64,000 nt of DNA from Candidatus Eiseniibacteriota bacterium (GTDB lineage: Bacteria; Eisenbacteria; RBG-16-71-46; JABDJR01), in contig CAWANH010000028.1 of the NCBI GenBank assembly GCA_963783375.1, positions 1,728,001 to 1,792,000 on the forward strand, in the 5' to 3' direction. The position numbers were made by a program, and so were the translations under genes. Below, piece after piece: positions 14,732 through 33,973 of this stretch; the first letter of the stretch is position 1, and the number at the start of each line of letters is the position of its first letter. The notes under the pieces were generated by a model, which was given only the letters and a program-made list of their open reading frames with translations, was not told the origin of the DNA and made no database searches.

Positions 14732-15346
14732 TCAATCCTTGACGCTGGCCAGGAGCGAGCGGACCTCGGGCGCCACCATCTCGGAACGGGTGACCAGGAG
14801 GAGCCGCAGCTCGTCGGCCCCGACGTTCCGGATGATCTGGTCCTTCTGGGCTTTCACGAAGATCGAGTCGCCCGGGTCCACGACGTAGTTGTCGCCCTGG
14901 ATCTGGACCTCGCACTTTCCACGAAGGACGTAGAGGAAGTACTCGTCGGGGACGCTCGGCCGGGGACTGAGACGCAGCTCGCCGGAGCTGAGCTCCAGGA
15001 AGAGCACGTTGAACGCCCCGGCGGTGGAACGCGCGGTAAGCACCTCGATGCTCACGTTCTCATTGGTGTTCCCCACCTTGCGGCCCTTGCCCTGGCGGAT
15101 CAGGTCCACTTCCTTCATGCGCTCGTCCTCGAAGAACTCGGTCATGGGGACGTTCAGCGCCTGGGCGATCCGGTGAAGGGTGGCCAGCGAGGGCGATGAG
15201 ACGCCCCGCTCGATCGTGGAGATCTGGCCGTTGGTGATCCCGACCTGCTGGGCCAGCTCCAGCTGGGTCAGGTTCTGCTCCTTGCGGAGCTTCCTGAGCT
15301 TTTGGCCCAGGTACATCATGTGGACTCTTTCGTCATTCGTGTACAT
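14732..15346 (-). CDS. XRE-family HTH regulator with C-terminal cupin
   Basis: LGQKLRKLRKEQNLTQLELAQQVGITNGQISTIERGVSSPSL; cupin EYFLYVLRG...PGDSIF; SD GGAGAG. Confidence 0.92.
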   Translation of the reverse strand: MYTNDERVHMMYLGQKLRKLRKEQNLTQLELAQQVGITNGQISTIERGVSSPSLATLHRIAQALNVPMTEFFEDERMKEVDLIRQGKGRKVGNTNENVSIEVLTARSTAGAFNVLFLELSSGELRLSPRPSVPDEYFLYVLRGKCEVQIQGDNYVVDPGDSIFVKAQKDQIIRNVGADELRLLLVTRSEMVAPEVRSLLASVKD

Positions 15347-15433
15347 CGTCTTCTCTCCGTAGCAGCCCGTTGGTTTTGGGGGAAAGGGCCACTTCCGACC
15401 CTGCTTCCTACTTGTGGAACACCAACTACAGCA

Positions 15434-15449
15434 TTCAGATTCCGTGCCA
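15434..15449 (-). promoter_or_regulatory. Possible sigma54 promoter of the XRE-cupin gene
   Basis: TGGCACGGAATCTGAA: perfect -24 element, but -12 reads GA not GC; AT-rich IHF-like tract at ~15475-15501. Confidence 0.4.
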
Positions 15450-15556
15450 TCTTTCATATTTTGCCGCAGAATCAGTAACTAATTACCTGACAACAAATTA
15501 CGGCCGGACGAAATCATGAGGGGTTCGAGCTTTGACCGGTCAGGTAGAAAGTTCGT

Positions 15557-16921
15557 TCAACTACCAGAAAAAGTTTCTTTCAATCCGTAGTCTCGAATCT
15601 TCTTCCGGAGGGTCGGCCGGGAGACCCCCAGAATCTCGCACGCCTTGCCCTGGTGCCAGCCCACCGCCCCCAGGACCCGGGAAATATGCTGGGCCTCGAC
15701 GTCCTCGAGGCTCCGGAAGGGCGAATCCTCGGCGGCCATCTCCGAGGGAATCGTGTCCTCGAGGCTGTGGGCCTGCAACTCCAGCACCTCGCCCTTGCTG
15801 AGCACGACGGCCCGGGTGAGCACGTTCTCGAGCTCCCGGACGTTTCCCCGCCAGTCGTAGTGCATGAGCCGCTTCATGGTCTCGTCGGGGACCTTGTACA
15901 CCTCCCTGTGCACCTCGGCGTTGATCTTCTGGAGGAAGTGCTCCACCAGCAGCGGGATGTCCTCCCGCCGCTCCTTCAAGGGGGGGACGTACACCGTGAT
16001 GACCTTCAGGCGGTAATAGAGGTCCTCGCGGAACCGGTTCTCCGCCACCAGGGTCTCCAGGTTGCGGTTGGTGGCGGCCACCAGCCGGGCGTCGGTGCGC
16101 AGGACCTCGCTCCCGCCCACCCGGGTGTACTCCCGCTCCTGAAGCACCCGGAGGAGCTTCGTCTGGAGTCCGGGAGACATGTCCCCGATTTCGTCCAGGA
16201 ACATGGTGCCCTTCCCGGCCAGCTCGAATTTTCCGGGCTTCCGGTAGGACGCGTCGGTGAACGCTCCCTTCTCATGCCCGAAGAGCTCGCTCTCCAGGAG
16301 GGTGTCCACGATGGCCGAGCAGTTCACCGAGATGAAGGGTTCCTGGGGGGCGGCGTTGGCGTGGATGGCCCGGGCCACCAGTTCCTTCCCGGTCCCGCTC
16401 TCGCCGGTGATGAGGACGGTGGCGTTGCTGGAGGAGACCGCGCCGATGGTCTTGTAGATCTCCAGCATCGGCTTGCTCTTTCCCACCAGCACGTTCTGTT
16501 TCAGCGGCATGATCCGCTCGGCCTGGAGCCGTGAGACAACCTGGGTGAGCCGCCGGTTCTCCCGGGCCTTGTTGACCACGATCTCCAGCTTTTCCGGATC
16601 GAAGGGCTTGTCGATGTAGTCGAACGCGCCGTGCTGCATGGCCGAAACGGTGGTCTCCATGTCCTGGTAGGCGGTGATCATGATCACATAGACGTCGGGA
16701 TCGATGCGACAGACCTCGGACAGGATGGAGAGCCCGTCTCCGTCGGGGAGGCGGACGTCGCAGATCACGTAGTGGGGGTGAACTTCGTGGAAGTTGCGGA
16801 GGCCTTCGGCCTTGGAGAGCGCGGTGTAGGTATCGAAGCCCTTGCTCCGGAAGAATAGCGACAGCTCCCGGCACAGGTTCGCCTCGTCGTCGATGATGAG
16901 CAGGCGTTCCGCTTCCTTCAT
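15557..16921 (-). CDS. Sigma54-dependent response regulator (REC-AAA+-Fis HTH, NtrC/AtoC family)
   Basis: REC (LIIDDE, DVRLPD), [52 protein letters not shown]. Confidence 0.95.
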
Positions 16922-18030
16922 GACCCGGCCTCCGTCTCGGGAAGTTTGAGCACCACCACCGTTCCCCGCCCCGGAGTGGAATCGAGGGAGACCGAGCCCT
17001 GGTGGAGGTCCATGATGCGGCGCACGTTGCTGAGCCCGAGGCCGAGCTGGTGCCCGGTGGTGGTGAAGAACGGCTCGAACACCCGTGCCTGAAGATGGGG
17101 GGCGATGCCCGGTCCGTTGTCGCGAATCTCCACCAGCCATTGAGCCCCGGTTTCCAGGGGTTGGCGCTTGAGCACCACGTGGATCTCTCCCTTGTGATCC
17201 ATGGCCTCGGAGGCGTTCTGCACCACCTGGCTCACCGCCTGGGCGAATTGGCCGCGATCGATGCGCACGCGCGGCGGACCGGCGGGGAACTGCCGGAACA
17301 GGGCCACCGATTTGAGGTTCAGAATCGGGCGGGCGTCTTCGAGCCCCTGGTTCACCGCGTCCACCAGGTCCACCCAGTCGAACCGGGGTTTGGGGGGCTT
17401 GGCGTAGTTCACCAGGGTTCGCAGGAAGAGCTCGATGCGGTTCAGCTCCTCCCGGGCGATGGAGAAATGGAGGGTCTCATCCGGGTCGGGAACCCGGGCT
17501 TTCTCCAGCATGTAGAGGCTGAGCTTGATGGCGGAGAGGTGGTTGCGAATCTCGTGAGCCATGTTGTGGGCGATGAGCCCGAGGGTGCCGAGCTTGCCCT
17601 CGGCCACCAGCCGCTTTTGGAACGCGCGTTGCTCGGTGATGTCGCGGGCCACCCAAACCACGGCGATCGGTTCCCCGGCCCGGTTCCGCATGGCGTTGGT
17701 CTCGATGAACACGGGAAGGCCGGAGCCGTCCTGCCGGTAGCCGGTGAGCTCCCCCTTCCAGCCCCCCTCCACCGACCGGGTGAGGATGCGCTGCACCAGG
17801 TCCGCGTCCAGGGTCACCCGGCTCATGATCCCCACGTCCTGGCCCACCAGCATGTCCCGCGAATAACCCAGAGCCTTCAGGATGCGCTGGTTGACGAAGA
17901 GCAGCCGGCCGGTGAGATCGGTCACCGCCACGCCGATGGGGACGGCCTCCATGGATTGGAACAGCTCGCCGATGTGGTCGGTGAGGGACTCCGCGGAAAG
18001 TGGTGAATCGGGGAGAAAGCTATTTTCCAA
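16918..18030 (-). CDS. Cytoplasmic PAS sensor histidine kinase
   Basis: PAS/PAC, H-box AHEIRN, DNGPGI, FEPFFTT, GLGLGL; overlaps the regulator start; TTG start uncertain. Confidence 0.92.
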   Translation of the reverse strand: MENSFLPDSPLSAESLTDHIGELFQSMEAVPIGVAVTDLTGRLLFVNQRILKALGYSRDMLVGQDVGIMSRVTLDADLVQRILTRSVEGGWKGELTGYRQDGSGLPVFIETNAMRNRAGEPIAVVWVARDITEQRAFQKRLVAEGKLGTLGLIAHNMAHEIRNHLSAIKLSLYMLEKARVPDPDETLHFSIAREELNRIELFLRTLVNYAKPPKPRFDWVDLVDAVNQGLEDARPILNLKSVALFRQFPAGPPRVRIDRGQFAQAVSQVVQNASEAMDHKGEIHVVLKRQPLETGAQWLVEIRDNGPGIAPHLQARVFEPFFTTTGHQLGLGLSNVRRIMDLHQGSVSLDSTPGRGTVVVLKLPETEAGS

Positions 18031-18146
18031 AATCGGCCCTCAGGCCCGGGTTCGGGAAGACATTCGAATCACCTGAGAGAATAGAAGTAACTCCGGCGGG
18101 ATTCAAGGCAAAGGGGTCGGCTGGGCAGGGGGGGGGTAGGGAGGAA

Positions 18147-18344
18147 TCAGCCCTGGGCGGACCGGGGGTCGCCGGTCGTCGGAGGGGCGGCCTGGCCGGC
18201 GTAGGCCGGGCACTCCCGGCGGAGGGGGCAGCTGTGCGGGCCCTGATCGAGCGGGCATCCCCCGACCACCCGGTTGTGGTTCCGGCAGTAGAACGAGTAG
18301 GTCGAGCCGTCAGCCGCAGGTCTCTTGATCCGGAACGCTCGCAT
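18147..18344 (-). CDS. Small Cys/His-containing hypothetical protein (65 aa)
   Basis: GGAGG SD 4 nt before ATG; sigma54 site ~50 nt upstream; YCRNH...GCP...HSCP...ECP. Confidence 0.6.
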   Translation of the reverse strand: MRAFRIKRPAADGSTYSFYCRNHNRVVGGCPLDQGPHSCPLRRECPAYAGQAAPPTTGDPRSAQG

Positions 18345-18391
18345 GCCGCCTCCACGCTTCGGTCTGCCATCAGGGGTCAGCCATTGGTCTT

Positions 18392-18407
18392 AGCAACCTT
18401 CGTGCCC
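18392..18407 (-). promoter_or_regulatory. Sigma54 (-24/-12) promoter
   Basis: GGGCACGAAGGTTGCT = GG-N10-GC, near-consensus TGGCACG-N4-TTGCW. Confidence 0.75.
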
Positions 18408-18610: not shown

Positions 18611-18637
18611 TCAAGTTCGGCGGCAGCCCGCCGATAT
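18611..18637 (+). promoter_or_regulatory. Sigma28 (FliA-type) promoter of mglA
   Basis: TCAAG...: TCAA-N15-GCCGATAT, ~75 nt before ATG 18713. Confidence 0.72.
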
Positions 18638-18712: not shown

Positions 18713-20038
18713 ATGGTCGTAGTGTCCTACTCCGGGAAAGAAATCAACGCCAAGCTGGTTTACTACGGCCCGGGACTCAGCGGTAAGACGACCAATCTCG
18801 AGTACATCTACCAGAGCGTTCCCTCGAACAACCGGGGGAAGATGGTCTCCATGAAGACCCGGACCGAGCGCACGCTCTTCTTCGACTTCCTGCCGGTGGA
18901 CCTCGGGGAGATGGGCGGGTTCAAGACCCGGTTCCTCCTCTACACCGTTCCCGGCCAGGTGTACTACAACGCCACCCGGAAACTGGTCTTGCGCGGGGTG
19001 GACGCGGTGATCTTCGTGGCCGATTCCGCCCGCGGGAAGATGGACGAGAACATCGAGTCCCTTCGGAACCTGCACGAAAACCTGAAAGAGTACGGGCTCA
19101 GCACCGAGGACATCCCGGTGGTGATGCAGTACAACAAGCGCGATCTCGACGACGTCTATTCGGTCGAGGAACTGGAAGAGGCTCTGAACCCGGACGGCCT
19201 GACCTGCTTCGAGGCGGTGGCCACCACGGGGCAGGGGGTCTTCGAGACCTTCCGGGGCATCGCCCGGGTGCTTCTTCAGAAGCTGAACAAGGACATCAAG
19301 CTGGGAGACGGGCGCGGGTTGGCGGCCAAGATGGGAGGGGTGGACGGCACGGCTCACCCCGCCCCGGCTGGAGTCCCCACGCCGACGTCCGCACCCGCGG
19401 CCGCGAGCCCTTCGAAGGTCCCGGAGACCCCGAAGCCGGCCGCCCCGGCTTCCTTCCGGCCGCCGAAGCCGGAACCGGTCGCGCCGCCGCGTCCGGAGCC
19501 GAGGCAGAAGCCCGCGGCGCCCGAACCCCAGCCGGTGAAGGCGTCGGAGCCCGCGACCCCGCCGACGGCGCCCAAGCCGGTCGTGGCCCCCGCCCCGGCC
19601 GCGGCCTCCAAGCCCGAGCCCCCGGCCCCCCGGCCGGAGCCCGAGCCGGTGGAAGCCCGGTCGGGATCCCGTCCGAGCCCGGCTCCCGAAATGCGTCGCG
19701 TGGAGGGCACCCGGCCGGCCGACGTGCTGGAACTCCCCGCCGAGAGCTTCAGCCCCGCCTCCGAGGAGGGCGAGAAGCCCGGCTTCTGGGGCCGGTTGTT
19801 CGGCCGAAAGGCCCGGGCAGACCAGGGCGCCGAGACCCTGGTGGCCGAGGCGAGCCTGGCCCCGGTGGAGATTCCCGCGGTGGGGGGCTCCGGCGACACC
19901 TCCCCGGTCTTTATCGAGCGCCGTATCCAGGTGCCGATCACCCTGGGCCCCGACGAGATCGTCCGGGGGGCGAAGCTCCGGCTGGTCCTGGAGATCCGGG
20001 TGGATCCGGCCCAGAAACGGGACTCCAAGGTGGCCTGA
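18713..20038 (+). CDS. mglA: MglA-family small GTPase with a long Pro/Ala linker and extra C-terminal domain (441 aa)
   Basis: KLVYYGPGLSGKTTNL, TERTLFFDFLP, LYTVPGQVYYNATRKLVLRGVD, YNKRDL, AVATTGQGVFETF. Confidence 0.93.
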   Translation: MVVVSYSGKEINAKLVYYGPGLSGKTTNLEYIYQSVPSNNRGKMVSMKTRTERTLFFDFLPVDLGEMGGFKTRFLLYTVPGQVYYNATRKLVLRGVDAVIFVADSARGKMDENIESLRNLHENLKEYGLSTEDIPVVMQYNKRDLDDVYSVEELEEALNPDGLTCFEAVATTGQGVFETFRGIARVLLQKLNKDIKLGDGRGLAAKMGGVDGTAHPAPAGVPTPTSAPAAASPSKVPETPKPAAPASFRPPKPEPVAPPRPEPRQKPAAPEPQPVKASEPATPPTAPKPVVAPAPAAASKPEPPAPRPEPEPVEARSGSRPSPAPEMRRVEGTRPADVLELPAESFSPASEEGEKPGFWGRLFGRKARADQGAETLVAEASLAPVEIPAVGGSGDTSPVFIERRIQVPITLGPDEIVRGAKLRLVLEIRVDPAQKRDSKVA

Positions 20039-20211: not shown

Positions 20212-20730
20212 ATGTTCCGGAAGCACAACACAGCCATCTTCGCCCTGATTCCGATGGTCGCCCTTCTGGCTGGCGCCGGAGCGGCTTCGGCCGGGATCCC
20301 CGACGCCACGCCCCCCGCCCTCCAGGGCATCGGAACCGAGCCGTCGGCCGGGCTCCTGAACTCCGGACTGCTCGACTTCTCCCGTTTCGACGTTCGGAAC
20401 AGCCTCAGCTACTCCTATTCCTCATCGTCGCAGTTCGGTTCGCAATCCGCCGGACTCTGGATGACCGAGATCGGCTACCGTATCTCCGACCCGCTCCGGG
20501 TCTCGGTGGACGTGGGGGCGACCCTCGATCCCTCCTCGGAGAACCTGTTCAGCGAGAAGAACATCTTCCTCCGAGGCTTCAATCTGGACTACCGGCCGAG
20601 TCGGAACTTTCAGTTCAACGTCTCCTACGTGAATACGCCTCCCGCCGCGGCCACCGCTCTCGGTTATCGCGGCTGGCCTTACGCGGGGGGATTCCGACCC
20701 TATGGGTCGCCCCTGAGTATGGGCCATTGA
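20212..20730 (+). CDS. Secreted hypothetical protein (beta-strand rich)
   Basis: GGAGG SD, Sec signal ending ASA, alternating beta-strand pattern. Confidence 0.75.
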   Translation: MFRKHNTAIFALIPMVALLAGAGAASAGIPDATPPALQGIGTEPSAGLLNSGLLDFSRFDVRNSLSYSYSSSSQFGSQSAGLWMTEIGYRISDPLRVSVDVGATLDPSSENLFSEKNIFLRGFNLDYRPSRNFQFNVSYVNTPPAAATALGYRGWPYAGGFRPYGSPLSMGH

Positions 20731-21875
20731 AATTTCGGTCCTCTTCCTCCTCCTCTCCCGCCGTCGTTTCCTCGTCGACCCGTGGCCTACGTGACCGGGC
20801 CGAGGACACCGCCCGCCGCCTGAAGGCGGAGCCGGGCCGGTTGGATCTCGTCCTGGAGCTGGCCCAGACCCTGGAGCGGCTCGGGGAACACCGTGACGCG
20901 CTTCGCGTGGTGGAACGCATGTCCAAGCGGGGGGCGTCCACTCCCGAGCTGGTCCGGTTGCGGGCGGAGTGCCTGCGCCGGGTGGGCCGGGCCGAAGAGG
21001 CGGTGACCGTGCTCGACGAGGCGGCGGAGATGCTGGCGGACGTCCCCAGCGCCTGGATCACCCGGGGCCGGTGTCTGGCCGCGGCGGGGCGGCTCGAGGA
21101 GGCGGTCGAGGCCTCGCAGAACGCGGCCCGCCTCGATCCCGGGAGCGCCGACGCCCAGTATTCCGTCGGGGTGACCCTGGCCCGGGCCGGCCGGGGCTAC
21201 GAGGCCGAGCAGGCCTACAACCGGGCGATCCGCCTGGACCCCGACATGGCCAAGGCCCACATCAACCTCGGCATCCTCTACGACACCCTCGGACGGAAAG
21301 AGGACGCTCTGGCCTCGCTCCGGCGCGCCACCACCTGCGACCCCGAGAGCGCGGTGGGTCACGCCAACCTGGGAGCGATCTACGGGGAGCAGGGTCGGCG
21401 CGAGGAGGCGTTGGCCGAGCTCAAGCGGGCGTTGGAGATCGACCCGCGCTCCGCCGAGGCCCACTTCAACCTCGCGCTCCTCTACCTGGACGAGGGCCGG
21501 CTGGAGCAGGCGACCGAAGCGTTGACCGCGGCCCGGGAGACCGCTCCCGAGGACACCCGCATCCTCTACTACTCCGGGGTGCTCGCGCTTCGCCAGGGGC
21601 GTCACCAGGAAACCGTCTCGGTGTTCACGGAGTACGTGCGGCTCCAGAAGGAGGACGCCCGCGGCCACTACCACCTCGGGGTGGGGCTCCTGCGCCTGAG
21701 CCGCCTGGACGAGGCGGTCCAGAGCTTTCAGCAGGCGGTGAAGATCGATCCCGGCCACCAGCGCGCCCACTACTACCTCGGGGTGGCCTTCGACCGGAAG
21801 GGCCTCAAGCACGAGGCCCGTCTCGCCTACCATGCCGCCGACCGGCTAGACCGGGGCGGCCCCCCGCTCGGATAG
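20727..21875 (+). CDS. TPR repeat protein
   Basis: About 10 TPRs (DP..A.AH.NLG..Y); TTG start overlaps upstream stop. Confidence 0.88.
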   Translation: MKFRSSSSSSPAVVSSSTRGLRDRAEDTARRLKAEPGRLDLVLELAQTLERLGEHRDALRVVERMSKRGASTPELVRLRAECLRRVGRAEEAVTVLDEAAEMLADVPSAWITRGRCLAAAGRLEEAVEASQNAARLDPGSADAQYSVGVTLARAGRGYEAEQAYNRAIRLDPDMAKAHINLGILYDTLGRKEDALASLRRATTCDPESAVGHANLGAIYGEQGRREEALAELKRALEIDPRSAEAHFNLALLYLDEGRLEQATEALTAARETAPEDTRILYYSGVLALRQGRHQETVSVFTEYVRLQKEDARGHYHLGVGLLRLSRLDEAVQSFQQAVKIDPGHQRAHYYLGVAFDRKGLKHEARLAYHAADRLDRGGPPLG

Positions 21876-21881
21876 ACCCCG

Positions 21882-22676
21882 ATGTCCTTCATCGACGCCC
21901 TCGTCCTGGGCCTGGTCCAGGGCCTGACCGAGTTCCTTCCCGTATCCTCCTCCGGGCACCTGGTGCTGGCCGGGCGACTTCTGGGGTTGGGTCAGGGAAG
22001 CGTGGCCTTCGATGTCTGGCTCCACCTCGCCACCCTGACCGCGGTGGTGGTGGCGCTCCGGAGCGACGTCTGGATGATGCTCCGGAGCCTCTCCCCACGC
22101 GCCCCGGAGCCGGAGGCCGGGCGGGGCCGAAAGCTCATCGTGGCCATGGTGGTCGGGACCATTCCCGCGGTGATCGTGGGATTGGTGGCCAAGGACGCGG
22201 TCGAGGCCGCGTTCACCAGCGTGCGGCTGGTCGGGGTGGACCTGCTCCTCACCGCGTTCATCCTCGCCCTCTCGCGGCTCTTTCCCGGGCGCGGGATGCC
22301 GCTCACCCCGATCAAGGCCCTGGGGATCGGGATCGCTCAATGCATCGCCATCCTGCCCGGGGTTAGCCGCTCCGGCTCCACCCTCACCGCCGGGCTCATG
22401 TTCGGGCTCTCCGGCGAGGACGCGGCGCGGTTCTCGTTCCTGCTGTCGGTGCCGGCCATCCTGGGAGCGGCGGTGCTCGACGCTCCCGCGATCGTCCACC
22501 TGGGGGGAAACCCCGGGATCCTGATCGGGAGCTTCCTGGTGGCCGCGGTGAGCGGGTACGTGGCCATCCGGCTGGTGTGGAAGGTCATGGAACGGGGGAA
22601 GCTCGCCGCCTTCGCGCCCTACTGCGCGCTCCTCGGCCTGGCTGCGCTCCTTCTGGGCGGCTCGCTTCCGGGGTAG
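21882..22676 (+). CDS. uppP: Undecaprenyl-diphosphate phosphatase
   Basis: LGLVQGLTEFLPVSSSGHL, PGVSRSGST, AARFSFLLSVP. Confidence 0.97.
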   Translation: MSFIDALVLGLVQGLTEFLPVSSSGHLVLAGRLLGLGQGSVAFDVWLHLATLTAVVVALRSDVWMMLRSLSPRAPEPEAGRGRKLIVAMVVGTIPAVIVGLVAKDAVEAAFTSVRLVGVDLLLTAFILALSRLFPGRGMPLTPIKALGIGIAQCIAILPGVSRSGSTLTAGLMFGLSGEDAARFSFLLSVPAILGAAVLDAPAIVHLGGNPGILIGSFLVAAVSGYVAIRLVWKVMERGKLAAFAPYCALLGLAALLLGGSLPG

Positions 22677-22775: not shown

Positions 22776-24206
22776 ATGACCGAGCGCGACCCCTCGTTCC
22801 TGGATCTGGACCCCGAAGCCATGCGGCGGCTGGGCTACGCCGCGGTGGACCGGGCGGTCGATCACCTCGCGAGCCTGGAGCGGGAGCCGGCCTGGGGGAT
22901 GATGACCCGCGAGGAAGGGGAGGCCCTCCTTCGTGAGCCCGTCCCCGAAACCGGCGCGCCGCTCGATGGGCTCATGGCGACCGCCGAGCGCGATGTCCTC
23001 ACCCGCTCCGCCCGGGTCGGCCACCCTCGCTTCTTTGCCTACGTTCCGGGGGCGGTGACCTTCCCCGGGGTGCTGGCGGCTCTCCTGGCCGCCGCCCACA
23101 ATCCGTTCGTGGGAACCTGGCTCGGGGGGTCGGGTCCCTCGATGATGGAACTCACGGTGGTGGACTGGATCCGCGAGATGACCGGGCTCCCCGAGGGCGC
23201 CGGGGGTCTTCTCACCAGCGGCGGCTCCGCCGCGAACCTCATCGCGTTGGTGGCCGCGCGCCACGCCCGCCTCGATGACCGGACCGAAGCCGCGGTGATC
23301 TACGCGTCCGACCAGACGCACACCGCGGTCACCCGGGCGGCCTGGATCGCCGGTTTTCCCCGCGAAGCCGTCCGGCTCCTCCCCGCCGACCGAGACTACC
23401 GGCTGGATCCGGGCGCTCTGGAAACCGCGATAGCCGAAGACCGCGCCGGCGGCCGGCGACCGTTTCTCGTCGCGGCCAACGCCGGGGCGACCAGCACCGG
23501 CGCGGTGGACCCCCTCGAAGACCTTGCCGCGATCGCCCGCCGCGAAGGACTCTGGCTCCACGTGGACGCGGCCTACGGGGGCTTCGCCGCCATCACCGAG
23601 CGGGGGCGCCACGCCCTGGCCGGGATCGGCGACGCCGACTCCTGGGCCTTCGATCCCCACAAGTGGCTCTACCAGGGCTTCGAGTGCGGCTCGGTCCTCC
23701 TTCGCCGGCCGGAGGAGCTGCGCGCGGCCTTCACCGTGGACGCCGCCTATCTCCAGGACACCCGTCTCGGCGCCGAGCGCCCGAACCTGTCCGATCACGG
23801 CATCCAGCTCTCGCGCTCCTGGCGGGCGCTCGGGATCTGGCTCTCGGTGAAACACTTCGGCCTGGCCCGGCTCCGGTCCGCGGTGGATCGCACCCTGGAT
23901 CTGGCCGCCCACGCCCAGGCCGCGGTCGAGGCCGACCCCGCGATGGAACTCCTCTCGCCGGCCCGGCTCGGGGTGGTCTGCTTCCGGCTGGCGCCGTCCG
24001 CGAAACCCGGTGCGCGCCCCTCGGAGGCCGACCTGGAGGCCATGAACCGGGCCGCCCTCGAGCGGCTGAACGCGAGCGGCTACGGGTTCATCTCCTCCAC
24101 CCGGCTTCGGGGAACGTTCGCCTTGAGGCTTTGCATCCTGAGCCACCGCTCCACCGCCGCCGACGTGGGCGGGGTGCTGGCCCGGCTCCGGGAGGCGGCG
24201 GAGTAG
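22776..24206 (+). CDS. Group II PLP-dependent amino-acid decarboxylase
   Basis: HPRFFAY, TSGGSAANL, LHVDAAYGG, PLP lysine in DPHKW; substrate not assignable. Confidence 0.92.
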   Translation: MTERDPSFLDLDPEAMRRLGYAAVDRAVDHLASLEREPAWGMMTREEGEALLREPVPETGAPLDGLMATAERDVLTRSARVGHPRFFAYVPGAVTFPGVLAALLAAAHNPFVGTWLGGSGPSMMELTVVDWIREMTGLPEGAGGLLTSGGSAANLIALVAARHARLDDRTEAAVIYASDQTHTAVTRAAWIAGFPREAVRLLPADRDYRLDPGALETAIAEDRAGGRRPFLVAANAGATSTGAVDPLEDLAAIARREGLWLHVDAAYGGFAAITERGRHALAGIGDADSWAFDPHKWLYQGFECGSVLLRRPEELRAAFTVDAAYLQDTRLGAERPNLSDHGIQLSRSWRALGIWLSVKHFGLARLRSAVDRTLDLAAHAQAAVEADPAMELLSPARLGVVCFRLAPSAKPGARPSEADLEAMNRAALERLNASGYGFISSTRLRGTFALRLCILSHRSTAADVGGVLARLREAAE

Positions 24207-24221
24207 CGGGGCGGGCGCGGG

Positions 24222-25241: not shown

Positions 25242-25341
25242 GGTCGCTCCTTCCCCATGGGTCGAGGGCCGATTGTAGCGAAAGAACGGGGGGTTGGTTA
25301 CAATGCGATCCGTCGCATTGTGGCTGACAAGGGGGAGATTG

Positions 25342-25770
25342 GTGAACGCAAAGACCTGGACGATGCGGGCGGCCGCGGTGGTGGTGCTTGGATCGGGATT
25401 GAACGCGTGTGGCGCCGGGGGCATGCCGAACCTCCCGCCCAGCTCCGACTATACGATCTCGGGGCAGGTGAAGGGAGACGACGGCTCGCCGCTGGCCTAC
25501 GCCAGCCTGGCCCTGGCCGGGAGCCCGCTCGGAACCCTCGCCGACGGCCAGGGGAACTTCGGATTCAACGGCGTCCGGTCCGGGAGCTACGGACTCACCG
25601 TCATCTACCTGGGCTTCCGGTCGAACGCGGTGCGGTTCACCCTTCCCGGCGCCTCCGACAGCACCGCCACCCTGAAGACGGCGCGCGATGCCGGGCTGGG
25701 ACCGGCCCTGGTGGACAGTCTGGGTCCGGTGACCGTCTCCTACCGGATCCGCGCGGCGGGGCAGCCATGA
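25342..25770 (+). CDS. Lipoprotein with carboxypeptidase-regulatory-like domain
   Basis: Lipobox LNAC; ISGQVK..DGSPL.YASL..GT.AD.QGNF...G.Y.LTV.YLGF. Confidence 0.75.
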   Translation: MNAKTWTMRAAAVVVLGSGLNACGAGGMPNLPPSSDYTISGQVKGDDGSPLAYASLALAGSPLGTLADGQGNFGFNGVRSGSYGLTVIYLGFRSNAVRFTLPGASDSTATLKTARDAGLGPALVDSLGPVTVSYRIRAAGQP

Positions 25771-25830: not shown

Positions 25831-27030
25831 ATGTCCGACACGCCGGCCTCCAACCCCGGGCTCGTCAAGTCCACGCTGATTCGCGAGCTGGTGGACCTGT
25901 CCCGGTTCACCGAGGGGATTCTTCGCACCATGGGGTCGGCGGTGGTGGCGGTGGACGACGGGGGGACGGTTACCTACGTGAACCCCGCCGCCGAGTCGCT
26001 TCTGGACCGTCCCGCGGCCGCGCTCCTCAACCGGCCCTCCGGGGAGGTGCTCCTGACCCGAAGCGGCGCCGGGCTGGTGGGCGACGTCGCCGGTGAAGCG
26101 GAAGGGGAGGTGGACCTGAAGCTCCACGACGGCCGCCTGGTCACCGTGGAGGCGCGGGTGAGCCGCCACCAGGGAAAGCGCGGCGAGGAGGAGGGGCTGG
26201 TGGTCATCCTCACCGACCGCACCGACGTGAAGCGGGCCGAAGAGGAATCGCGGCGGAAGGACCGGCTGGCCTCGTTGGGCGAGCTCTCGGCCGGGGTGGC
26301 CCACGAGATCCGGAACCCCCTGGCCGGGATCGCGGCCGGGGCGCAGCTCTTGAGATCGCGCCTGGAACCCGGGGACGATCGGGTGCGCCTGGCCGACATG
26401 ATCCTGGAGGAGGCGGCCCGGTTGGACCGCATCGTGGACAGCCTGCTCCATTTCGCCCGGCCTCCCCAGCCGCGTCTCCGGGAATCGAGCCTGGAGAAGT
26501 GCGTGGAGCGGTCGCTCAGGCTGGTGCGCGAGGAAGCTTCCCGGATCGGGGTGGAGGTGGCGTTCGAGGCCGCCGGCGACCTCCCGCGGCTCTGGATCGA
26601 CCCGGACCAGATGGAGCAGGTCGCCCTCAACCTGGTCAAGAACGCGCTTCAGGCCATGGAGGACGGAGGGGGATCGCTCCGGACGGGGGTCCGGAGGGTC
26701 TCCCGGCGGCCCTACGTCCGCCGGCGGGCGGGACGGCGGGACGAGGATCCCGACCGGCTTCCCGGGCCCCAGGGACCGCTGCAGGATTGGGTGGAGATGG
26801 AGATCACCGACACCGGCCAGGGCATTCCTCCCGGGGAAGTGGAGCACATCTTCAACCCGTTCTACACCACCCGGCGGCAGGGCACGGGTTTGGGGCTCTC
26901 GATCACCCAGGCCATCATCCAGGAGCACGGCGGGATGATCTCCATCTCCAGCGAGCCGGGCCGGGGAACCACGGTGCTGGTGGACCTTCCGGTGGAGAAG
27001 CGGCGGCGACGGCGGCGGGATGAGGCGTAA
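25831..27030 (+). CDS. PAS sensor histidine kinase (NtrB/AtoS/FleS-like)
   Basis: PAS, AHEIRNPL, NLVKNA, DTGQGI, FNPFYTT, GTGLGL; no TM segment. Confidence 0.93.
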   Translation: MSDTPASNPGLVKSTLIRELVDLSRFTEGILRTMGSAVVAVDDGGTVTYVNPAAESLLDRPAAALLNRPSGEVLLTRSGAGLVGDVAGEAEGEVDLKLHDGRLVTVEARVSRHQGKRGEEEGLVVILTDRTDVKRAEEESRRKDRLASLGELSAGVAHEIRNPLAGIAAGAQLLRSRLEPGDDRVRLADMILEEAARLDRIVDSLLHFARPPQPRLRESSLEKCVERSLRLVREEASRIGVEVAFEAAGDLPRLWIDPDQMEQVALNLVKNALQAMEDGGGSLRTGVRRVSRRPYVRRRAGRRDEDPDRLPGPQGPLQDWVEMEITDTGQGIPPGEVEHIFNPFYTTRRQGTGLGLSITQAIIQEHGGMISISSEPGRGTTVLVDLPVEKRRRRRRDEA

Positions 27031-28512: not shown

Positions 28513-28826
28513 GTCGCAGCGGGCCGGCCCGGCCGGTTCAGGGGGGCCGCTTCCCCAGGGGGATCGCGTCGGGGGCGCCTGGCGGCACGCCTCCCTCCCC
28601 CGGATGATCTCTTCCCGGCCCGGGCGGAAATTTGCCGGTCCGGAGCCGTCCGCCGGTCCTTCTCCTGCCCCTCACTCCCCCCACTCGGCTGAATTGGGCC
28701 GAATCCGCCACCGGGCTCCTATCTTCCATCCTTGCCGGAGAGTATCCGTCCAAACCGCCCGCCGGAACCAGGCAGGCGGGCGGTGTGCCCGGGTCCGGGC
28801 GGGGCCGTCCCGGATCGCAACGCCGC

Positions 28827-28842
28827 TGGCCTCCAATTTGCA
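28827..28842 (+). promoter_or_regulatory. Sigma54 promoter of flhG-fliA
   Basis: TGGCCTCCAATTTGCA = GG-N10-GC in the 456-bp intergenic region. Confidence 0.68.
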
Positions 28843-28968
28843 TGAATCAACCCTCTGCGACCCGATGCGTCGGCCGATCGGCCGCCCCGGGTCCCCGAAT
28901 CAGGCGCTTCGGGCGGAGATCGGAGTCATCCGAACCGGCCGCCGGGAGCGAAGGGGGGAAGGACGGAC

Positions 28969-29937
28969 ATGCACTCCATGGACGGGATTGGCGAGAACGG
29001 CGGCACGACGGCGGCACGACGGCCACGGCTCAAGCTCGTGCCGGGCGGACGGCCCGGTGACGGGCTCGAGCCGGCGCCCCCGCTCCGGCCGGTTCGCACG
29101 GTGGCGGTGGCCAGCGGCAAGGGCGGGGTCGGGAAGACCAGCCTGACCGTGAACCTGGCCATGGCCCTGGCCGAACTCCAGCAGAGAGTGCTGGTGGTGG
29201 ACGGGGACCTCGGGCTCGGAAAGCTCGATCTCATGATCGGGGCCGCCCCGCGGTTTCACCTGGGGCACGTCCTGGCCGAGGAGTGCGACGTCACCGACGC
29301 CGTGATCACCGGGCCCCGCGGCGTGCGCTTCCTCCCCGGAGCCTGCGGCGGCGGCCAGCTCGCCGTGCTGGACCCGGTCCGCCGGCGCCGTTTCTTCGCG
29401 GCCCTGGACCGGTTCGCCGGCTCCACCGACGTGGTGCTCCTCGATCTCGCGCCCGGGATCGGTCCCAACGCCCTGGACCTGGCCCGCCACGCGGACGAGG
29501 TCCTGGTGGTCACCACCCCCGAACCCACCGCCTACGCCGACGCCTACACCGTGATCAAGATCCTTTCCACCCCGGGGGCGCTCCCGCCCCGGGTGGTGGT
29601 GAACCGGGCCCGGAGCGAGGAGGAGGCCCACGACACGTTCCTACGGCTTTCCGGCACCGCCAAACGCCACCTCGGGGTGGCCCCGGTCTTCTGGGGGCTG
29701 ATCCCCGAGGACGAGACGGTGGGCACCGCGGTGCGTCGCCAGATCCCCTTCACCTTGAGCTCCCCGGACACGCCGGCCAGCCGCCACGTGCGAACCCTGG
29801 CCTGGCGCTTGCTACGGGGAAGGACCCCGGACGGGGGCGATCGCGCACCCGTCCTCGACTCCCAGGGGGGCCCGAACGGCGGGCGCCCCGGACGCGGACC
29901 GTCGGTGAGCCGCCCGCGCCTTTGGGAGGCCGCGTGA
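28969..29937 (+). CDS. flhG: MinD/ParA-family ATPase, FlhG/FleN type
   Basis: Deviant Walker A SGKGGVGKT, DGDLGLG, DLAPGIG, FlhG-typical TPEPTAYADAYTVIK, IPEDETV..AVRRQ.PF; followed by fliA. Confidence 0.85.
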   Translation: MHSMDGIGENGGTTAARRPRLKLVPGGRPGDGLEPAPPLRPVRTVAVASGKGGVGKTSLTVNLAMALAELQQRVLVVDGDLGLGKLDLMIGAAPRFHLGHVLAEECDVTDAVITGPRGVRFLPGACGGGQLAVLDPVRRRRFFAALDRFAGSTDVVLLDLAPGIGPNALDLARHADEVLVVTTPEPTAYADAYTVIKILSTPGALPPRVVVNRARSEEEAHDTFLRLSGTAKRHLGVAPVFWGLIPEDETVGTAVRRQIPFTLSSPDTPASRHVRTLAWRLLRGRTPDGGDRAPVLDSQGGPNGGRPGRGPSVSRPRLWEAA

Positions 29938-29975
29938 CCCGAGCCCGGATGACTACCAAAAGGAGAGACCCCTCC

Positions 29976-30749
29976 ATGTCGACCCCGCGAGTTGCCGCCA
30001 CCGCCAAGCCCGATGTCGCCGCGCCGCCCGCCCTGTGGCGGAAACCCACCAAGGACGAGGCCTACCGTCGTTACGCCCCGCTCATGAAGTACGTGGTGGA
30101 TCGCGTCGCCTCCAACGTGCCCAAGTACGTGGAGCGCGACGACCTTCTGAACGCCGCCGCCCTGGGACTCTTCGACGCCCTGGAGAAGTACGACAGCGGG
30201 AAGGGAACCAAGTTCGAGACCTACGCGGTGTGGCGGATCCGGGGAGCGGTGCTGGACGAGCTTCGCGCCATGGACTGGGCCAGCCGCTCCATCCGGCGCA
30301 AGGCCCGCCACGTGGACACCCTGACCCGGGAACTCGATCAGCGCCTTGGTCGGGCAGCCAGCGACGACGAACTGGCCGAGGTCATGGACATCTCCTCCAC
30401 CGAGATGGCCCGGGTTCTGGAGGAAGTGCGGGGTGTGGTCCTGCTCTCCCTGAACCAGTCCTCCAGCGAGACCGACGACGGGCACTCCGGCGGCCTGGCC
30501 GAGGTCATCGAGGATCCCCATTCCGAGGACGCCCTGGACGAGATCGAGAAGCACCAGCTCTCCGATGTGCTGGTGGACGTGATCAGCGATCTCTCCGAAC
30601 AGGAGAAGCTCGTCCTGGCCCTCTACTACTACGAAGAGATGACCCTGAAGGAGATCGGCCAGACCCTGGGGATCTCCGAATCCCGGGTATCCCAGATCCA
30701 CACCAAGGCGATCTCCCGGCTCAAGGGCCGGATGCGCCGGGCCGCCTGA
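29976..30749 (+). CDS. fliA: RNA polymerase sigma28 factor (FliA/WhiG family)
   Basis: KFETYAVWRIRGAVLDELRAMDW.SRSIR; region 4 LYYYEEMTLKEIG..LGISESRVSQIH; SD AGGAGA. Confidence 0.95.
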   Translation: MSTPRVAATAKPDVAAPPALWRKPTKDEAYRRYAPLMKYVVDRVASNVPKYVERDDLLNAAALGLFDALEKYDSGKGTKFETYAVWRIRGAVLDELRAMDWASRSIRRKARHVDTLTRELDQRLGRAASDDELAEVMDISSTEMARVLEEVRGVVLLSLNQSSSETDDGHSGGLAEVIEDPHSEDALDEIEKHQLSDVLVDVISDLSEQEKLVLALYYYEEMTLKEIGQTLGISESRVSQIHTKAISRLKGRMRRAA

Positions 30750-30773
30750 CCGGCCTCTCCGACGGGGGAATTC

Positions 30774-30789
30774 GGGCACGTAGCTTGCA
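30774..30789 (+). promoter_or_regulatory. Sigma54 promoter of the GAF-GGDEF gene
   Basis: GGGCACGTAGCTTGCA = GG-N10-GC, near consensus. Confidence 0.75.
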
Positions 30790-30923
30790 AGATGCACGGT
30801 CGGGTGGGCAATCGACCCGCCCAAGTCCCAGTCGAATCGAGGGGGGGGAGTCCCGAGGCCGGCCAGGAGCCGGCCGCTCCCCGGTAAGATTTCGTCCAAT
30901 CGGCACCAGGGAGATGACACCAC

Positions 30924-32183
30924 ATGAAAACCGCCAAGAAGGCCGCGGCCAAGAAGACGACTCAGAAGAGCGCCCCCGGCAAGGGTACCGCCCAGAAGAC
31001 CGTCCGGGAGAAACTCGCGCTGGTGGAGAGCCTGGCCGGATTGGGGCTCCTGGACTCCGACACCGCCGCGCGGCTCCAGAAGAAGGCGGAATCCCTGGCC
31101 GAATCCGGCAAGGACATCCCCGCGCGGGCCACGGGATGGGACCGCGCGCTTCGGTCCGGTCTGGAGGGGTTCAAGGCCGCCGGAGGGGATGGGAACGTGG
31201 GGCACTCGCTCCAGGGGCTCATGGTCTGGCAGGGGAACCTGGCCGAGGCGCCGCCGGATCCCGCCGGGATCCACGCCGCCCTGACCGCCCTCAAGAAGGT
31301 GTTCCCTTACGACGGCGCGACCCTGTTCCTGCGCGACCCCGACCGCAAGACCGTTGATCCTCTTTTCAGCGTGGACCAGCCGGTGGACCTCATCAGTCGG
31401 ATCCGGTTCACCGAGGGAATGGGCTTCTCCTCCTGGGTGGCCTGTCGGCGGAAGCCGGTCCTCTACGGCTCCCTGCATCGGAACGAGGCCCCCGGATCGG
31501 AGCGGATGCGCTCCTTCATGGCGATTCCCCTGGTAGTGGGAACGGAGTGCGTGGGCGTTCTCAACTTCGGGCACACGGTCGACGGCGCGTACACCCCGGT
31601 CCATCTGCGGCTCGCCATCCTGGCCGGGGGCATGCTGGCCGGCCTCGTTCAGCGATTCGTGGCCCTGGGCCAGATCGCGGCCCGCGAGATCGCCGATCCG
31701 GTGACCGGCCTCGCCACGTCCCCCTATCTGCGGGCCCGCCTGGCCGAGGAGGTCGTGCGCTGCCGGGAGTTGGGGCATTCCATGAGCCTGGTCGCGTTCC
31801 GCCTGAACGAGTTGGACGAGCACGCCGAGCGCTTCGGCGGGGACTACCGGGAGCGCGTGCGGGTCGAGCTGGCCCGGATCGTCCAGGACTGGAAGGCCCC
31901 GGCCGAGATCGCCGGCTACGACAACGACGACCGGGTTCTGGTGCTCCTTCCCGCCACCCGGAGCGAACGGGCGGGTGAGCGGGCGGCGGCGCTCCAGGCC
32001 CGCCTGGAAAAGCACAACTTCCCGCGCCGCAAGCGGATGACGGTGGGGGTGGGGCTGGCCACCTACCCCACGGATGCAGAAGGGGCTCAAGAGCTCTACG
32101 ACTTTGCCGATAAGAATTTGAACGAGGCCGCCCAGTCCGGGCCGGCCGGCGACGACGTTTATCAACCCATGGCCATTTCCTGA
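30924..32183 (+). CDS. GAF plus degenerate GGDEF-domain protein
   Basis: GAF (GFSSWVA, RSFMAIPL, VGVLNF); GGDEF fold (DPVTGL, TVGVGLATYP, ADKNL) with the active site replaced by YDNDD. Confidence 0.85.
   Translation: MKTAKKAAAKKTTQKSAPGKGTAQKTVREKLALVESLAGLGLLDSDTAARLQKKAESLAESGKDIPARATGWDRALRSGLEGFKAAGGDGNVGHSLQGLMVWQGNLAEAPPDPAGIHAALTALKKVFPYDGATLFLRDPDRKTVDPLFSVDQPVDLISRIRFTEGMGFSSWVACRRKPVLYGSLHRNEAPGSERMRSFMAIPLVVGTECVGVLNFGHTVDGAYTPVHLRLAILAGGMLAGLVQRFVALGQIAAREIADPVTGLATSPYLRARLAEEVVRCRELGHSMSLVAFRLNELDEHAERFGGDYRERVRVELARIVQDWKAPAEIAGYDNDDRVLVLLPATRSERAGERAAALQARLEKHNFPRRKRMTVGVGLATYPTDAEGAQELYDFADKNLNEAAQSGPAGDDVYQPMAIS
32087..32113 (+). promoter_or_regulatory. Sigma28 promoter inside the GGDEF gene 3' end, upstream of the hybrid kinase
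   Basis: TCAA-N15-GCCGATAA (perfect -10), with locally AT-rich codon choice. Confidence 0.75.
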
Positions 32184-32206
32184 CCTTCACGGGGGAAGGC
32201 GGCTTC

Positions 32207-33973
32207 ATGATTCAGGAAGCGGGCGCCCAGGGGGTCGGTGAGCCCCGGCCCAGACTCCTCGTCGTGGACGATGAGGAAAACGTCGTGCAGATCCTCCAGG
32301 ACCTGTTCAGCGAGCGTCCCTACGACGTGGACACCGTCACGTCCGGCGAGGAGGCTCTCGACCGCCTGGAAGCCAACCGCTACGACCTTCTTCTTACCGA
32401 TATCAACCTCCCCGGAGTGAACGGGCTCAAGGTGGTGGAGGCGGCCAAGGCCGCCGACCCGGACATCGTGATGATCGTGATCACGGGTTACGCTTCGACC
32501 GGGACCGCCATCGACGCCCTCCGCCATGGGGCCTACGACTACATCACCAAGCCGTTCGATCTCTGGGAAGTGGATCAGATCGTCGCCCGGGGATTGGAGA
32601 GCCGGCGGCTGGTTCACGAGAACCGGCGGCTGGTGCTCGACCTCCAGGGGGCCAACGAGGAGCTTCGCCGCCACGAGGAGATCCTGAAGGAGAAGGTGGC
32701 GGTGGCCACCCGCCGGATCCGCACCCTCTACGAGGTGGGCAAGGACGTCAACGCCAGCCTCGACGTGACCCGGACCCTGAACTTCATCGTGAGCCAGGCC
32801 GCCACCCTGACCGGGGCGCGGATGGGGCTCCTCTTCCGGAGCCGGGAGAACACCGGGACCCTGGTGGCCGAGGTGGGCTACGGTCCGGCCGAGGCCCTGA
32901 CCGGCACCGCCACCGTGCGCGTGGGACAGGGGGTGAACGGCCGGGTCGTCGAGACCCTGGAGCCGGCCCGCGTGGAAACGGACACCCCCCAGAGCTTCGG
33001 CGAGGAGTGCATGGCCGAGCTCGGAGTCCGCATGCTCCTGGCCGTGCCCCTGAAGCACAAGGGGAAGCTCCTGGGGGTCCTGAATGTCATGGAGAGGGAG
33101 CATGGCTCGTTCACCGACGAGGACCAGGACCTTCTCGAGTCCTTCGCCTCCCAGGCCGCCCTGGCCCTGGCCAACGCCGAACTGTACGAGACCGCCCGCC
33201 AGCTCGACCAGATGAAGTCCGAATTCGTGGCCGTGGTGTCCCACGAGGTGCGGACCCCGCTCACCGCCATCCAGGGATCCCTGGAACTCGTGCTCGACGA
33301 CCGGTACTTCCAGATGGTCCCCAAGATGCGGGAACTTCTGAGCATCTGCCAGGCCAACGTGGAGCGGCTCCGGATTCTCATCAACGATATTCTCGATTTC
33401 TCCAAGATCGAGGCCAATCGCTTGAGCCTCGACTTCTCACCGGTGGATCTCTCCGACGTGGCGGTGGAGGTCGTGACCTCGATGGAAACGATCGCCGAAC
33501 AGAAGAAGATCCGCCTCCGGCTGGACGCCGCCGAGGACCTCGAGGCGATCCCCGCGGATCGGATGCGGGTGGGCCAGGTGCTGACCAACCTCGTGGGGAA
33601 CGCGCTCAAGTTCACCCCCGACGGTGGGCAGGTGGAGATCACCCTCGATCGCCTGCCCGAGGGCGGAGTGGTCTGCGTGGTGAGCGACTCCGGCCCCGGA
33701 ATCGCCTCCCAGGATCTGGGAAAGCTCTTCCAGAAGTTCCAGCAGATCGACAGCTCCCTCACCCGGCGCCAGGGCGGCACCGGCCTGGGGCTCGTGATCT
33801 CGAAGGGACTGGTGGAAGGACACGGGGGCCGGATCTGGGTGGAGAGCGAGGTCGGGGTGGGGAGCCGGTTCTGCTTCACCCTCCCCGAGACCCCTCCCGG
33901 TTACGTCGCTGCGCCCCAGGCCGGACCCGCCGGGCCGGATGCCGACGCCGACGAGTCCGCCCAGGCCGCCTGA
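32207..33973 (+). CDS. Hybrid histidine kinase REC-GAF-HisKA-HATPase
   Basis: LLVVDDE, TDINLP, coiled coil, GAF, SHEVRTPL, NLVGNALKFT, GGTGLGL. Confidence 0.94.
   Translation: MIQEAGAQGVGEPRPRLLVVDDEENVVQILQDLFSERPYDVDTVTSGEEALDRLEANRYDLLLTDINLPGVNGLKVVEAAKAADPDIVMIVITGYASTGTAIDALRHGAYDYITKPFDLWEVDQIVARGLESRRLVHENRRLVLDLQGANEELRRHEEILKEKVAVATRRIRTLYEVGKDVNASLDVTRTLNFIVSQAATLTGARMGLLFRSRENTGTLVAEVGYGPAEALTGTATVRVGQGVNGRVVETLEPARVETDTPQSFGEECMAELGVRMLLAVPLKHKGKLLGVLNVMEREHGSFTDEDQDLLESFASQAALALANAELYETARQLDQMKSEFVAVVSHEVRTPLTAIQGSLELVLDDRYFQMVPKMRELLSICQANVERLRILINDILDFSKIEANRLSLDFSPVDLSDVAVEVVTSMETIAEQKKIRLRLDAAEDLEAIPADRMRVGQVLTNLVGNALKFTPDGGQVEITLDRLPEGGVVCVVSDSGPGIASQDLGKLFQKFQQIDSSLTRRQGGTGLGLVISKGLVEGHGGRIWVESEVGVGSRFCFTLPETPPGYVAAPQAGPAGPDADADESAQAA

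Follow-up and report, generated by a model that had tools for sequence, protein, structure and literature searches.

In Pseudomonas, the polar flagellar programme FleQ/FleSR-FleN-FliA places a tier of sigma54 activators above flhF-flhG-fliA. Flagellated members of Candidatus Eisenbacteria show the same arrangement of tiers. Here we analyse a locus of this phylum, contained in a 64,000-nucleotide stretch of genomic DNA (the window), that carries two PAS histidine kinase/sigma54-activator pairs, an FlhG ATPase, the sigma factor FliA (sigma28), a GAF-GGDEF protein, a hybrid kinase and an MglA GTPase; unlike in Pseudomonas, FlhF, FlhA, a native FlgM and all structural targets are missing from the window. 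An original prediction, made from the letters of the window, had typed all of these proteins correctly and had taken them for a new system in which a flagellar regulatory core was redeployed to time a polarity, surface-motility or developmental programme.

The general principle, that such regulators are retained and that sigma28 can drive pili, is already published. Legionella longbeachae, which has no flagella, keeps FliA, FleN and FleS/FleR, L. oakridgensis keeps FliA and FlgM, L. israelensis is also among the non-flagellated Legionella with retained regulators, and this retention has been ascribed to functions beyond the flagellum (PMC5655016). As in Legionella, Eisenbacteria lost the structural genes repeatedly but kept sigma28, the FlhG/FleN ATPase, a kinase/sigma54-activator pair and, in many cases, FlgM; unlike in Legionella, which belongs to another phylum, the remnants form one locus in ancestral order, and the sigma is predicted to act on MglA, type IVa pili and cyclic di-GMP (c-di-GMP) enzymes. 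WhiG of Rubrobacter radiotolerans drives type IV pilus and c-di-GMP genes (PMC8325347), and in other Actinomycetota it is predicted to drive the same kinds of genes from the consensus T(C/A)A / GCCGA (PMC13595943). The Eisenbacteria case shares with WhiG a sigma of the flagellar clade and sites with a T(C/A)A –35 and a GCCGA –10 box in the type IV pilus cluster and before diguanylate cyclase and phosphodiesterase genes. It differs in that the Rubrobacter sigma is held by the c-di-GMP-binding RsiG, whereas Eisenbacteria have FlgM or no known anti-sigma factor (RsiG was not searched for) and a sigma54 promoter in addition. In Bdellovibrio bacteriovorus, FliA is an attack-phase regulator that drives flagellin and pilus genes, the Tad promoter having been shown by heterologous reporters, while pilA is not FliA-regulated (PMC5430801). 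That bacterium is flagellated and has FliA acting on type IVb pili, whereas the Eisenbacteria sites lie at type IVa genes and mglA. In its predicted mode of action the locus is like the sigma28-to-pilus links of Rubrobacter and Bdellovibrio, and in origin it is like the Legionella remnants. In the open-access literature searched (supplements excluded), we found no report of a class-wide deletion series, of this locus or of a conserved sigma28 promoter on mglA.

We compared the host's own genome (G000; 97% complete) with 60 relatives from 17 families, calling the genes of the window by Pfam and NCBIfam searches. By synteny, the window is read as the Eisenbacteria flagellar locus with both structural blocks deleted (Table 1), and its FliA has probably been kept for the predicted transcription of mglA, type IV pilus and c-di-GMP genes. 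In the flagellated relatives G055, G028 and G058 a single contig carries mglA-TPR-(bacA)-block 1-kinase 2-activator 2-block 2-flhG-fliA-HDOD-GAF-GGDEF, where block 1 comprises flgF-L, fliW, csrA, fliC, fliS, fliD, flgM and a PilZ gene (FliD, FliS, CsrA, FliW, FlgN and PilZ of the relatives were assigned by Pfam) and block 2 extends from flgB to flhF. The hybrid kinase comes next in G028 and G058, and in G008 the same parts of the locus are divided between two contigs. The window has this gene order minus both blocks: as originally claimed, no flagellar, che or mot family was found among the 47 open reading frames (ORFs) scanned with Pfam, flhF and flhA are absent, and the only FlhA of the genome belongs to another clade. 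Comparison of synteny and motifs across the relatives thus showed an ancestral gene order and, as described below, a conserved site at mglA. Other loci without FlhA hold remnants in the same places, namely fliW with csrA (G022, G049), csrA (G017, G036, G029), a flagellin-like ORF (G013), short flgM genes and PilZ. Flagellar scars that have csrA, with or without fliW, but no flagellin lie at L290:9923-10690, L292:8605-8832, L293:5938-6192, L296:11487-11801 and L299:3453-4213. Since these remnants are scattered and differ from one another, they fit repeated loss and do not fit repeated gain.

The sigma factor of the window is, by orthology and position, the lineage's own flagellar FliA in its ancestral place. 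It scores 255.6 bits against TIGR02479 (cut-off 189.6), Pfam regions 2, 3 and 4 are present, and an orthologue at E≤6e-74 occurs in 57 of the 60 relatives; of the other three, G039 carries a fragment at the edge of a contig, G056 a split copy, and a search of G034 found none. In 10 relatives flhA precedes the orthologue or its flhG (order flhA-flhF-flhG-fliA), and flhA or flhF lies upstream of the sigma orthologue in 10 of 27 named Eisenbacteria-like loci, for which reason the possibility of a non-flagellar paralogue was dropped. A quick tree places 40 sigma orthologues in one clade (SH-aLRT 99) whose topology tracks GTDB families, with flhA-linked and FlhA-less genomes as sisters in families f2 (G008/G009), f6 (G020/G013) and f16 (G052/G049). 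Two actinobacterial sigma rows fall outside it, so the window sigma is not in the actinobacterial WhiG clade. A sigma of this identity and position does not make the new system that had been proposed. FlhA scores above its family cut-off in 21 of the 60 relatives, and all 39 without it retain the sigma (intact in 38, broken in two in G056); the presence of fliA or flhG in a metagenome-assembled genome does not imply swimming.

If the locus were an inert remnant, its genes would be leftovers of recent deletions and its motifs relics. Decay of the GGDEF active site in the host's family and the faster divergence of FlhG relative to the sigma would suit such a state: the window protein has GYDND instead of the diguanylate cyclase motif GG(D/E)EF and lacks RxxD, whereas four of four orthologues from flagellated relatives have GGEEF and RxxD. 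However, the sigma ORFs are intact at 51-96% identity over 17 families, and intact ORFs, together with sites that have fixed boxes and variable spacers, indicate selection, which makes inertness scarcely credible.

That sigma28 recognizes TAAA/TCAAG-N14-15-GCCGATA promoters is predicted from motif enrichment and conservation. The window contains two exact copies of the motif TCAAG-N14-GCCGATA, one starting at 18611 and one at 32087, and 0 of 100 shuffles gave any match; both sites were correctly located in the original prediction, although the second lies within the last 100 nucleotides (nt) of the GGDEF gene. Genome-wide, T[AC]AAG..GCCGA[TA]A concentrates at spacers 14 and 15 (9 matches each, versus 0-4 at each of the 58 other spacers from 0 to 59), and from such matches a regulon could be predicted. 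We used two matrices, matrix A built from 16 G000 sites with mglA excluded and matrix B built from 20 mglA sites of relatives. By matrix A, the mglA site reaches at least 12 bits in 23 of 33 relatives, compared with 0 of 33 on the antisense strand and 0.9% of shuffles. Positives include the flagellated G015, G028, G039, G043, G055 and G058, and lower scores are seen in all five f12 genomes, single f7, f9 and f13 genomes, G008 (9.1) and G009 (11.6). This makes mglA the most conserved target tested (9 of 13 families). The proposed wiring of sigma28 to MglA thus extends across the class, whereas the hybrid-kinase site is restricted to the order and the sigma54 site before the GGDEF gene to the four genomes of the host's genus. 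Matrix B finds 21 sites of at least 20 bits in G000 versus 1 with shifted spacers, and the strict pattern has 445 matches in the 60 relatives versus 83 for the reversed control.

Many of the G000 sites precede genes of a type IVa pilus set, for which TIGR02538, TIGR01420, TIGR01175 and TIGR02515 score above cut-off alongside an N-methyl pilin and an A24 peptidase; the names pilH, pilS and pilR are taken, on our assumption of equivalence, from the Myxococcus cluster. Scores in bits are 23.8 for pilB-pilT-pilC, 14.2 for pilA, 20.4 for the ABC unit after pilA, 17.8 for pilM-Q, 17.5 for FHA-kinase-pilT-pilT, 19.5 for an MshEN ATPase-HDOD pair and 21.7 for an MshEN-pilT pair. Further targets are PAS-GGDEF (21.8), REC-GGDEF (16.1), GAF-GGDEF (16.2) and bactofilin (15.6), with a GAF-HD gene also among them. 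Of eight pilus-related units in G000, six have a site of at least 14 bits, as against 53 of 3488 genes overall; sites are missing in G000 at the minor-pilin operon and at accB-pilT (nearest 365 nt upstream, inside a gene). With matrix B at 12 bits or more, and with G000 counted, sites were found at pilB in 10/41, the ABC unit in 8/29 and pilM in 13/44 genomes, but hardly at internal genes, with pilC in 1/40, pilR in 1/38, pilS in 2/13, pilD in 0/27, pilN in 1/45 and pilQ in 0/10. PilM itself occurs in 59 of the 60 relatives. In G000, pilM is split by a one-base gap relative to G002 (G000:C29:188226-189282, L112), likely an assembly error. Four genomes with no second FliA (G001, G003, G004 and G006) have the same mglA and pil sites, which are therefore assigned to the window sigma.

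Several observations weigh against retention for these targets, or against the way the cascade is drawn. The strict pattern is not enriched in family f15 (21 versus 26), and a pilA site of at least 12 bits was seen in only 2 of 37 genomes, in family f1 alone. Of the 9 of 41 pilT matches at this threshold (matrix B), about half arise through PilB coding sequence, so coding DNA can mimic a sigma28 site; pilT upstream matches were rejected as largely such mimicry. Families f7, f9, f12 and f13 retain the sigma without pil sites and mostly without the mglA site, so pili alone cannot explain why it was kept, and strict-pattern targets in G057, G050, G029, G019, G021 and G014 are mostly signalling, envelope or uncharacterised genes rather than pili. 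The sigma tree came from a short search with SH-aLRT only and no bootstrap. Because G000 holds 25 activator-like genes, activator 2 is assigned to the flhG-fliA promoter by position only, and FlhG must be dispensable, because 15 of the 39 FlhA-less relatives lack it while 24 retain it. A second FliA encoded elsewhere in the genome (see below) may read the same G000 sites, its own cluster bearing similar ones. In RNA data, only two metatranscriptome runs shared 5-6% of the sequence words, and over the region their reads yielded short contig fragments that came for the most part from other organisms.

Some of these points would suit a sigma of broad remit, acting in stationary phase or on lifestyle in the manner of FliA in Bdellovibrio or in Legionella species without flagella, with pili and MglA as one lineage-specific branch and not the cause of retention. 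Four families do without pil sites, the targets include many kinases, STAS proteins, glycosyltransferases, FtsH, GalE and uncharacterised exported proteins, and L. oakridgensis without a flagellum has a working FliA-FlgM pair (PMC5655016). Against this, mglA is conserved more widely than any other target tested, and in G000 there is a strong excess of sites at pilus units. We consider a broad regulator unlikely, and it overlaps with retention for mglA, pilus and c-di-GMP genes, differing only in which targets drive it. In f9, a sigma54 site stands before pilB instead.

Flagellated relatives bear on the age of these targets. TAAAG-type sites are visible before fliC in four of four (only one above 12 bits), and others lie before flgN (two of four above 12 bits) and before motA. 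With late flagellar sites and pil/mglA sites together in flagellated relatives, a single sigma probably served both sets while the native flagellum was still present; since the targets predate its loss, 'kept' fits better than the 'redeployed' of the original prediction. A core newly rewired after flagellar loss, fed by both kinase/activator pairs and timing a polarity or developmental programme, would account for the sigma54 site directly before flhG only where the native block is gone, and the family- or order-limited pilA and hybrid-kinase sites could mean that some targets are recent. Yet mglA and pilM/pilB sites are present in the flagellated G015, G028, G039, G043, G055 and G058, activator 1 is unrelated to the activators of flagellar loci, and no sporulation or developmental target turned up, all of which renders such rewiring improbable. 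As for the programme served, one of polarity and surface motility is likely, and for development we found no evidence.

Flagellar genes do occur elsewhere in the genome. About 160-190 kb further on the same contig (G000:C28:1918000-1953000; L113, L114) lie two flagellin-domain genes, FlhA, FlaF, FlbT and a second FliA, 39% identical to the window sigma; most other gene names in this cluster (flgB to fliR, motAB) are presumptive labels from sequence features, transferred to relatives by BLAST. Its FliA and FlhA group separately from their native counterparts (SH-aLRT 100; FastTree 100), and such a second system is present in 10 of the 60 relatives (f1, f10, f11, f13). A recent lateral origin was not supported, the GC content of 0.70 being like that of the genome and FlhA tracking the families. 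No chemoreceptors were found in G000, which has one CheW-like gene, on two contigs. Three f15 genomes also carry orphan flhA-like genes without flagellar neighbours, in a separate deep clade (L345:8263-10389, L346:6528-8648, L347:8256-10373).

The window sigma and FlhG could in principle serve this cluster in trans: it is arranged flhA-flhF-fliA with no flhG between flhF and fliA, the genome has a single FlhG, and sigma28-like sites precede its flgM (19.0 bits), motA (15.2), flgL (14.6) and fliC (13.2). Of 31 sites of at least 18 bits in G000, 1 lies in the flagellar cluster, so strong sigma28 sites do not stand mainly before late flagellar genes. But the cluster owns a FliA of a separate clade and an FlgM-like gene, and the window genes persist in the congeners G001 and G003, which have no second cluster; cross-talk is possible but cannot, given those congeners, explain retention, and service in trans is accordingly very improbable as the reason. 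Some second-cluster fliC, flgL and flgM promoters have a variant –10 box, CCGAGAC.

The sigma54 tier was examined with a pattern of our own, GG-N10-GC, in a genome with one rpoN. The three sites originally proposed all exist, at 28827(+), 30775(+) and 18406(–), the latter two one base off the earlier 30774 and 18407. A sigma54 site was correctly expected to head flhG-fliA: among the genomes examined, flhG has such a site no more than 350 nt away in 14 of 17 without the native block versus 0 of 6 with flhG after flhF; in the three exceptions the site lies further upstream, before small inserted genes, and where flhG is lost as well (G006, G010, G014) it stands directly before fliA. In flagellated G055 a sigma54 site right after activator 2 heads the block absent from the window, so the deletion may have moved that site next to flhG; no equivalent was found in G028 or G058 with the same pattern. 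Activator 2, whose GAFTDA loop we take to be compatible with activity, clusters with activators inside native flagellar clusters, and activator 1 only with its G003 and G006 orthologues (FastTree). Of the two pairs placed in the cascade, only the second therefore belongs to the flagellar locus, the first being, by the same comparison, a family-level addition. Directly after activator 2, three native flagellar clusters encode a stand-alone sigma region-4 protein of 100-154 amino acids (aa; L263:316-618, L267:894-1214, L272:3413-3877), which may act as a decoy for sigma28 or modulate it. In relatives, the palindrome GGTCA-N5-TGACC, a candidate binding site for the activator, is found 130-230 nt upstream of the sigma54 site, and it also occurs at flgF promoters; it matches 9 of the 23 promoters from which it was derived and 3 of 3 flgF promoters, the region in G000 itself (window 28620-28640) is too degenerate to match, and we regard it as a lead only.

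The window FlhG has P. aeruginosa FleN as its best PDB match (E 9e-50) and a deviant Walker A, KGGVGK. An N-terminal DQAxxLR helix, which we take to be the FlhF-stimulating element of FlhG, is absent from it and present in 1 of 16 aligned sequences, that of flagellated G058.

Pfam FlgM proved too insensitive in these genomes (4 of 61), and a local profile of 12 sequences was used instead. It found an FlgM-like gene in 26 of the 39 FlhA-less relatives (7 of the 26 were profile members) and none in the five FlhA-less members of the host's family. G000 has no native flgM, csrA or fliW, its sole FlgM-like gene sitting in the second flagellar cluster. Genomes without FlhA encode short FlgM-like proteins of ~46-71 aa that correspond to the C-terminal part only. 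With no native FlgM in the host's family, FliA would be controlled mainly at transcription. We tentatively suggest, as a possibility well short of an even chance, a sigma54-to-sigma28 switch for a distinct surface-motile phase (pili, a long-tailed MglA without MglB, bactofilin, c-di-GMP), which would have escaped the flagellar export checkpoint by two routes: the host's family would have dropped FlgM and run the switch by transcription with FlhG as anti-activator, and the 26 FlhA-less relatives would keep an FlgM released without secretion.

The MglA of the window matches that of T. thermophilus (E 3.5e-73; aligned to 3t12 and 5ymx), and its G domain is intact, with the GxxxxGKT P-loop, R53, Q82 and NKRD invariant in 13 of 13 orthologues. 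At 441 aa, versus ~195 aa for single-domain Group 1 MglA, it continues beyond the G domain with a linker of low complexity and ends in a conserved motif, and the tail gave no usable match in the ESM Atlas. No MglB (PF03259) was found in the 97% complete G000. SofG of Myxococcus xanthus is linked to bactofilin. SofG and B. bacteriovorus MglA are orphan MglA-family GTPases, uncoupled from MglB, with an intrinsic arginine finger and ties to pilus motors (PMC4316618); the Eisenbacteria protein differs from both in its ~245 extra C-terminal residues and its conserved predicted sigma28 promoter. We infer a role in the polar placement of PilB and PilT.

Taken as a cascade, PAS kinase 2 would phosphorylate activator 2 and so open the sigma54 promoter of flhG-fliA, and FlhG may restrain activator 2 in the way that FleN restrains FleQ. 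FliA would then transcribe mglA, pilB-pilT-pilC, pilA, the pilus ABC unit, pilM-Q, two more pilT operons and bactofilin, as well as several GGDEF/HD enzymes and a number of kinases, the hybrid kinase among them, the motifs at these genes being observed and their function conjectural. MglA and bactofilin would position pilus motors at a pole, leading to a surface-motile or attaching cell state.

Table 1. Predicted features of the locus (window positions) and short FlgM-like ORFs of relatives (locus positions)
Feature	Position	Strand	Basis or remark
XRE HTH-cupin regulator	14732..15346	-	Pfam HTH_3 and Cupin_2
Sigma54 activator 1, REC-AAA-HTH	15557..16921	-	Pfam/NCBIfam
PAS histidine kinase 1, PAS-HisKA-HATPase	16918..18030	-	Pfam/NCBIfam
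Small Cys-rich protein, motif YCR..NR..CP..CP..C, divergent from mglA	18147..18344	-	no Pfam match
Sigma54 site of small-ORF unit	18393..18406	-	GG-N10-GC pattern
Sigma28 site TCAAG-N14-GCCGATA, 102 nt upstream of mglA	18611..18636	+	exact motif
MglA GTPase, Pro-rich linker and conserved C-terminal motif	18713..20038	+	structure/sequence comparison
Hypothetical protein, signal-peptide-like start	20212..20730	+	no Pfam match; homologues in G003, G004, G006, G017
TPR protein, conserved downstream of mglA	20727..21875	+	Pfam, synteny
bacA/uppP, left border of first deleted flagellar block	21882..22676	+	Pfam, synteny
PLP decarboxylase, aldo-keto reductase, lipoprotein	22776..25770	.	Pfam, synteny; in flagellated relatives flgF..flgL, fliW, csrA, fliC, fliS, fliD, flgM, PilZ here
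PAS histidine kinase 2, PAS-HisKA-HATPase, ancestral flagellar locus	25831..27030	+	Pfam/NCBIfam, synteny
Sigma54 activator 2, REC-AAA-HTH, GAFTDA loop	27097..28512	+	Pfam/NCBIfam, synteny, tree
Second deletion site	28513..28968	+	in flagellated relatives flgB..fliR, flhB, flhA, flhF here
Sigma54 site heading flhG-fliA	28827..28842	+	GG-N10-GC pattern, comparison with relatives
FlhG/FleN-type ATPase	28969..29937	+	PDB match, Walker A
Native FliA (sigma28)	29976..30749	+	TIGR02479, orthology, tree
Sigma54 site upstream of GGDEF gene, genus-level only	30775..30788	+	GG-N10-GC pattern
GAF-GGDEF protein, catalytic motif degenerate	30924..32183	+	Pfam
Sigma28 site in 3′ end of GGDEF gene, 120 nt upstream of hybrid kinase, order-level	32087..32112	+	exact motif
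REC-GAF-HisKA-HATPase hybrid kinase	32207..33973	+	Pfam
Short FlgM-like ORFs	L286:1612-1827, L288:7808-7948, L292:8933-9136, L293:6236-6439, L294:11939-12088, L297:13771-13911

Among the remaining genes, the XRE HTH-cupin gene adjoins mglA in G003, G006 and G008 too and is a family-level neighbour outside the ancestral flagellar locus. The small Cys-rich protein (65 aa) has its own sigma54 site; counting G000, motif-bearing homologues (families f1, f2, f7, f9, f12) occur at 14 of 34 mglA loci and a sigma54 site at the equivalent place in 13 of 34. In the region we found no sigma70 promoter and no terminator that was convincing. Further along, window 42546-60796 encodes a series of large proteins with DUF11/DUF7507 repeats together with a subtilase; these have C-terminal tails of the FlgD-Ig/Por type, and several appear to be frameshifted, and 37749-40466 (–) encodes a Ser/Thr kinase fused to a STAND-type NTPase whose frame apparently shifts near the ORF end. 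The G000 contigs C4-C6, C11, C14, C16, C18, C19, C23, C25 and C27 are near-identical copies (98-99.8%) of parts of large contigs, so some G000 gene counts are doubled.

For this uncultured class, the 17 families provide a natural deletion series that tells which flagellar regulators survive loss of the flagellum, along with a reason at the sequence level. The series predicts that sigma28 directly controls an MglA polarity GTPase, and it supplies defined promoters on which this control could be tested in E. coli.

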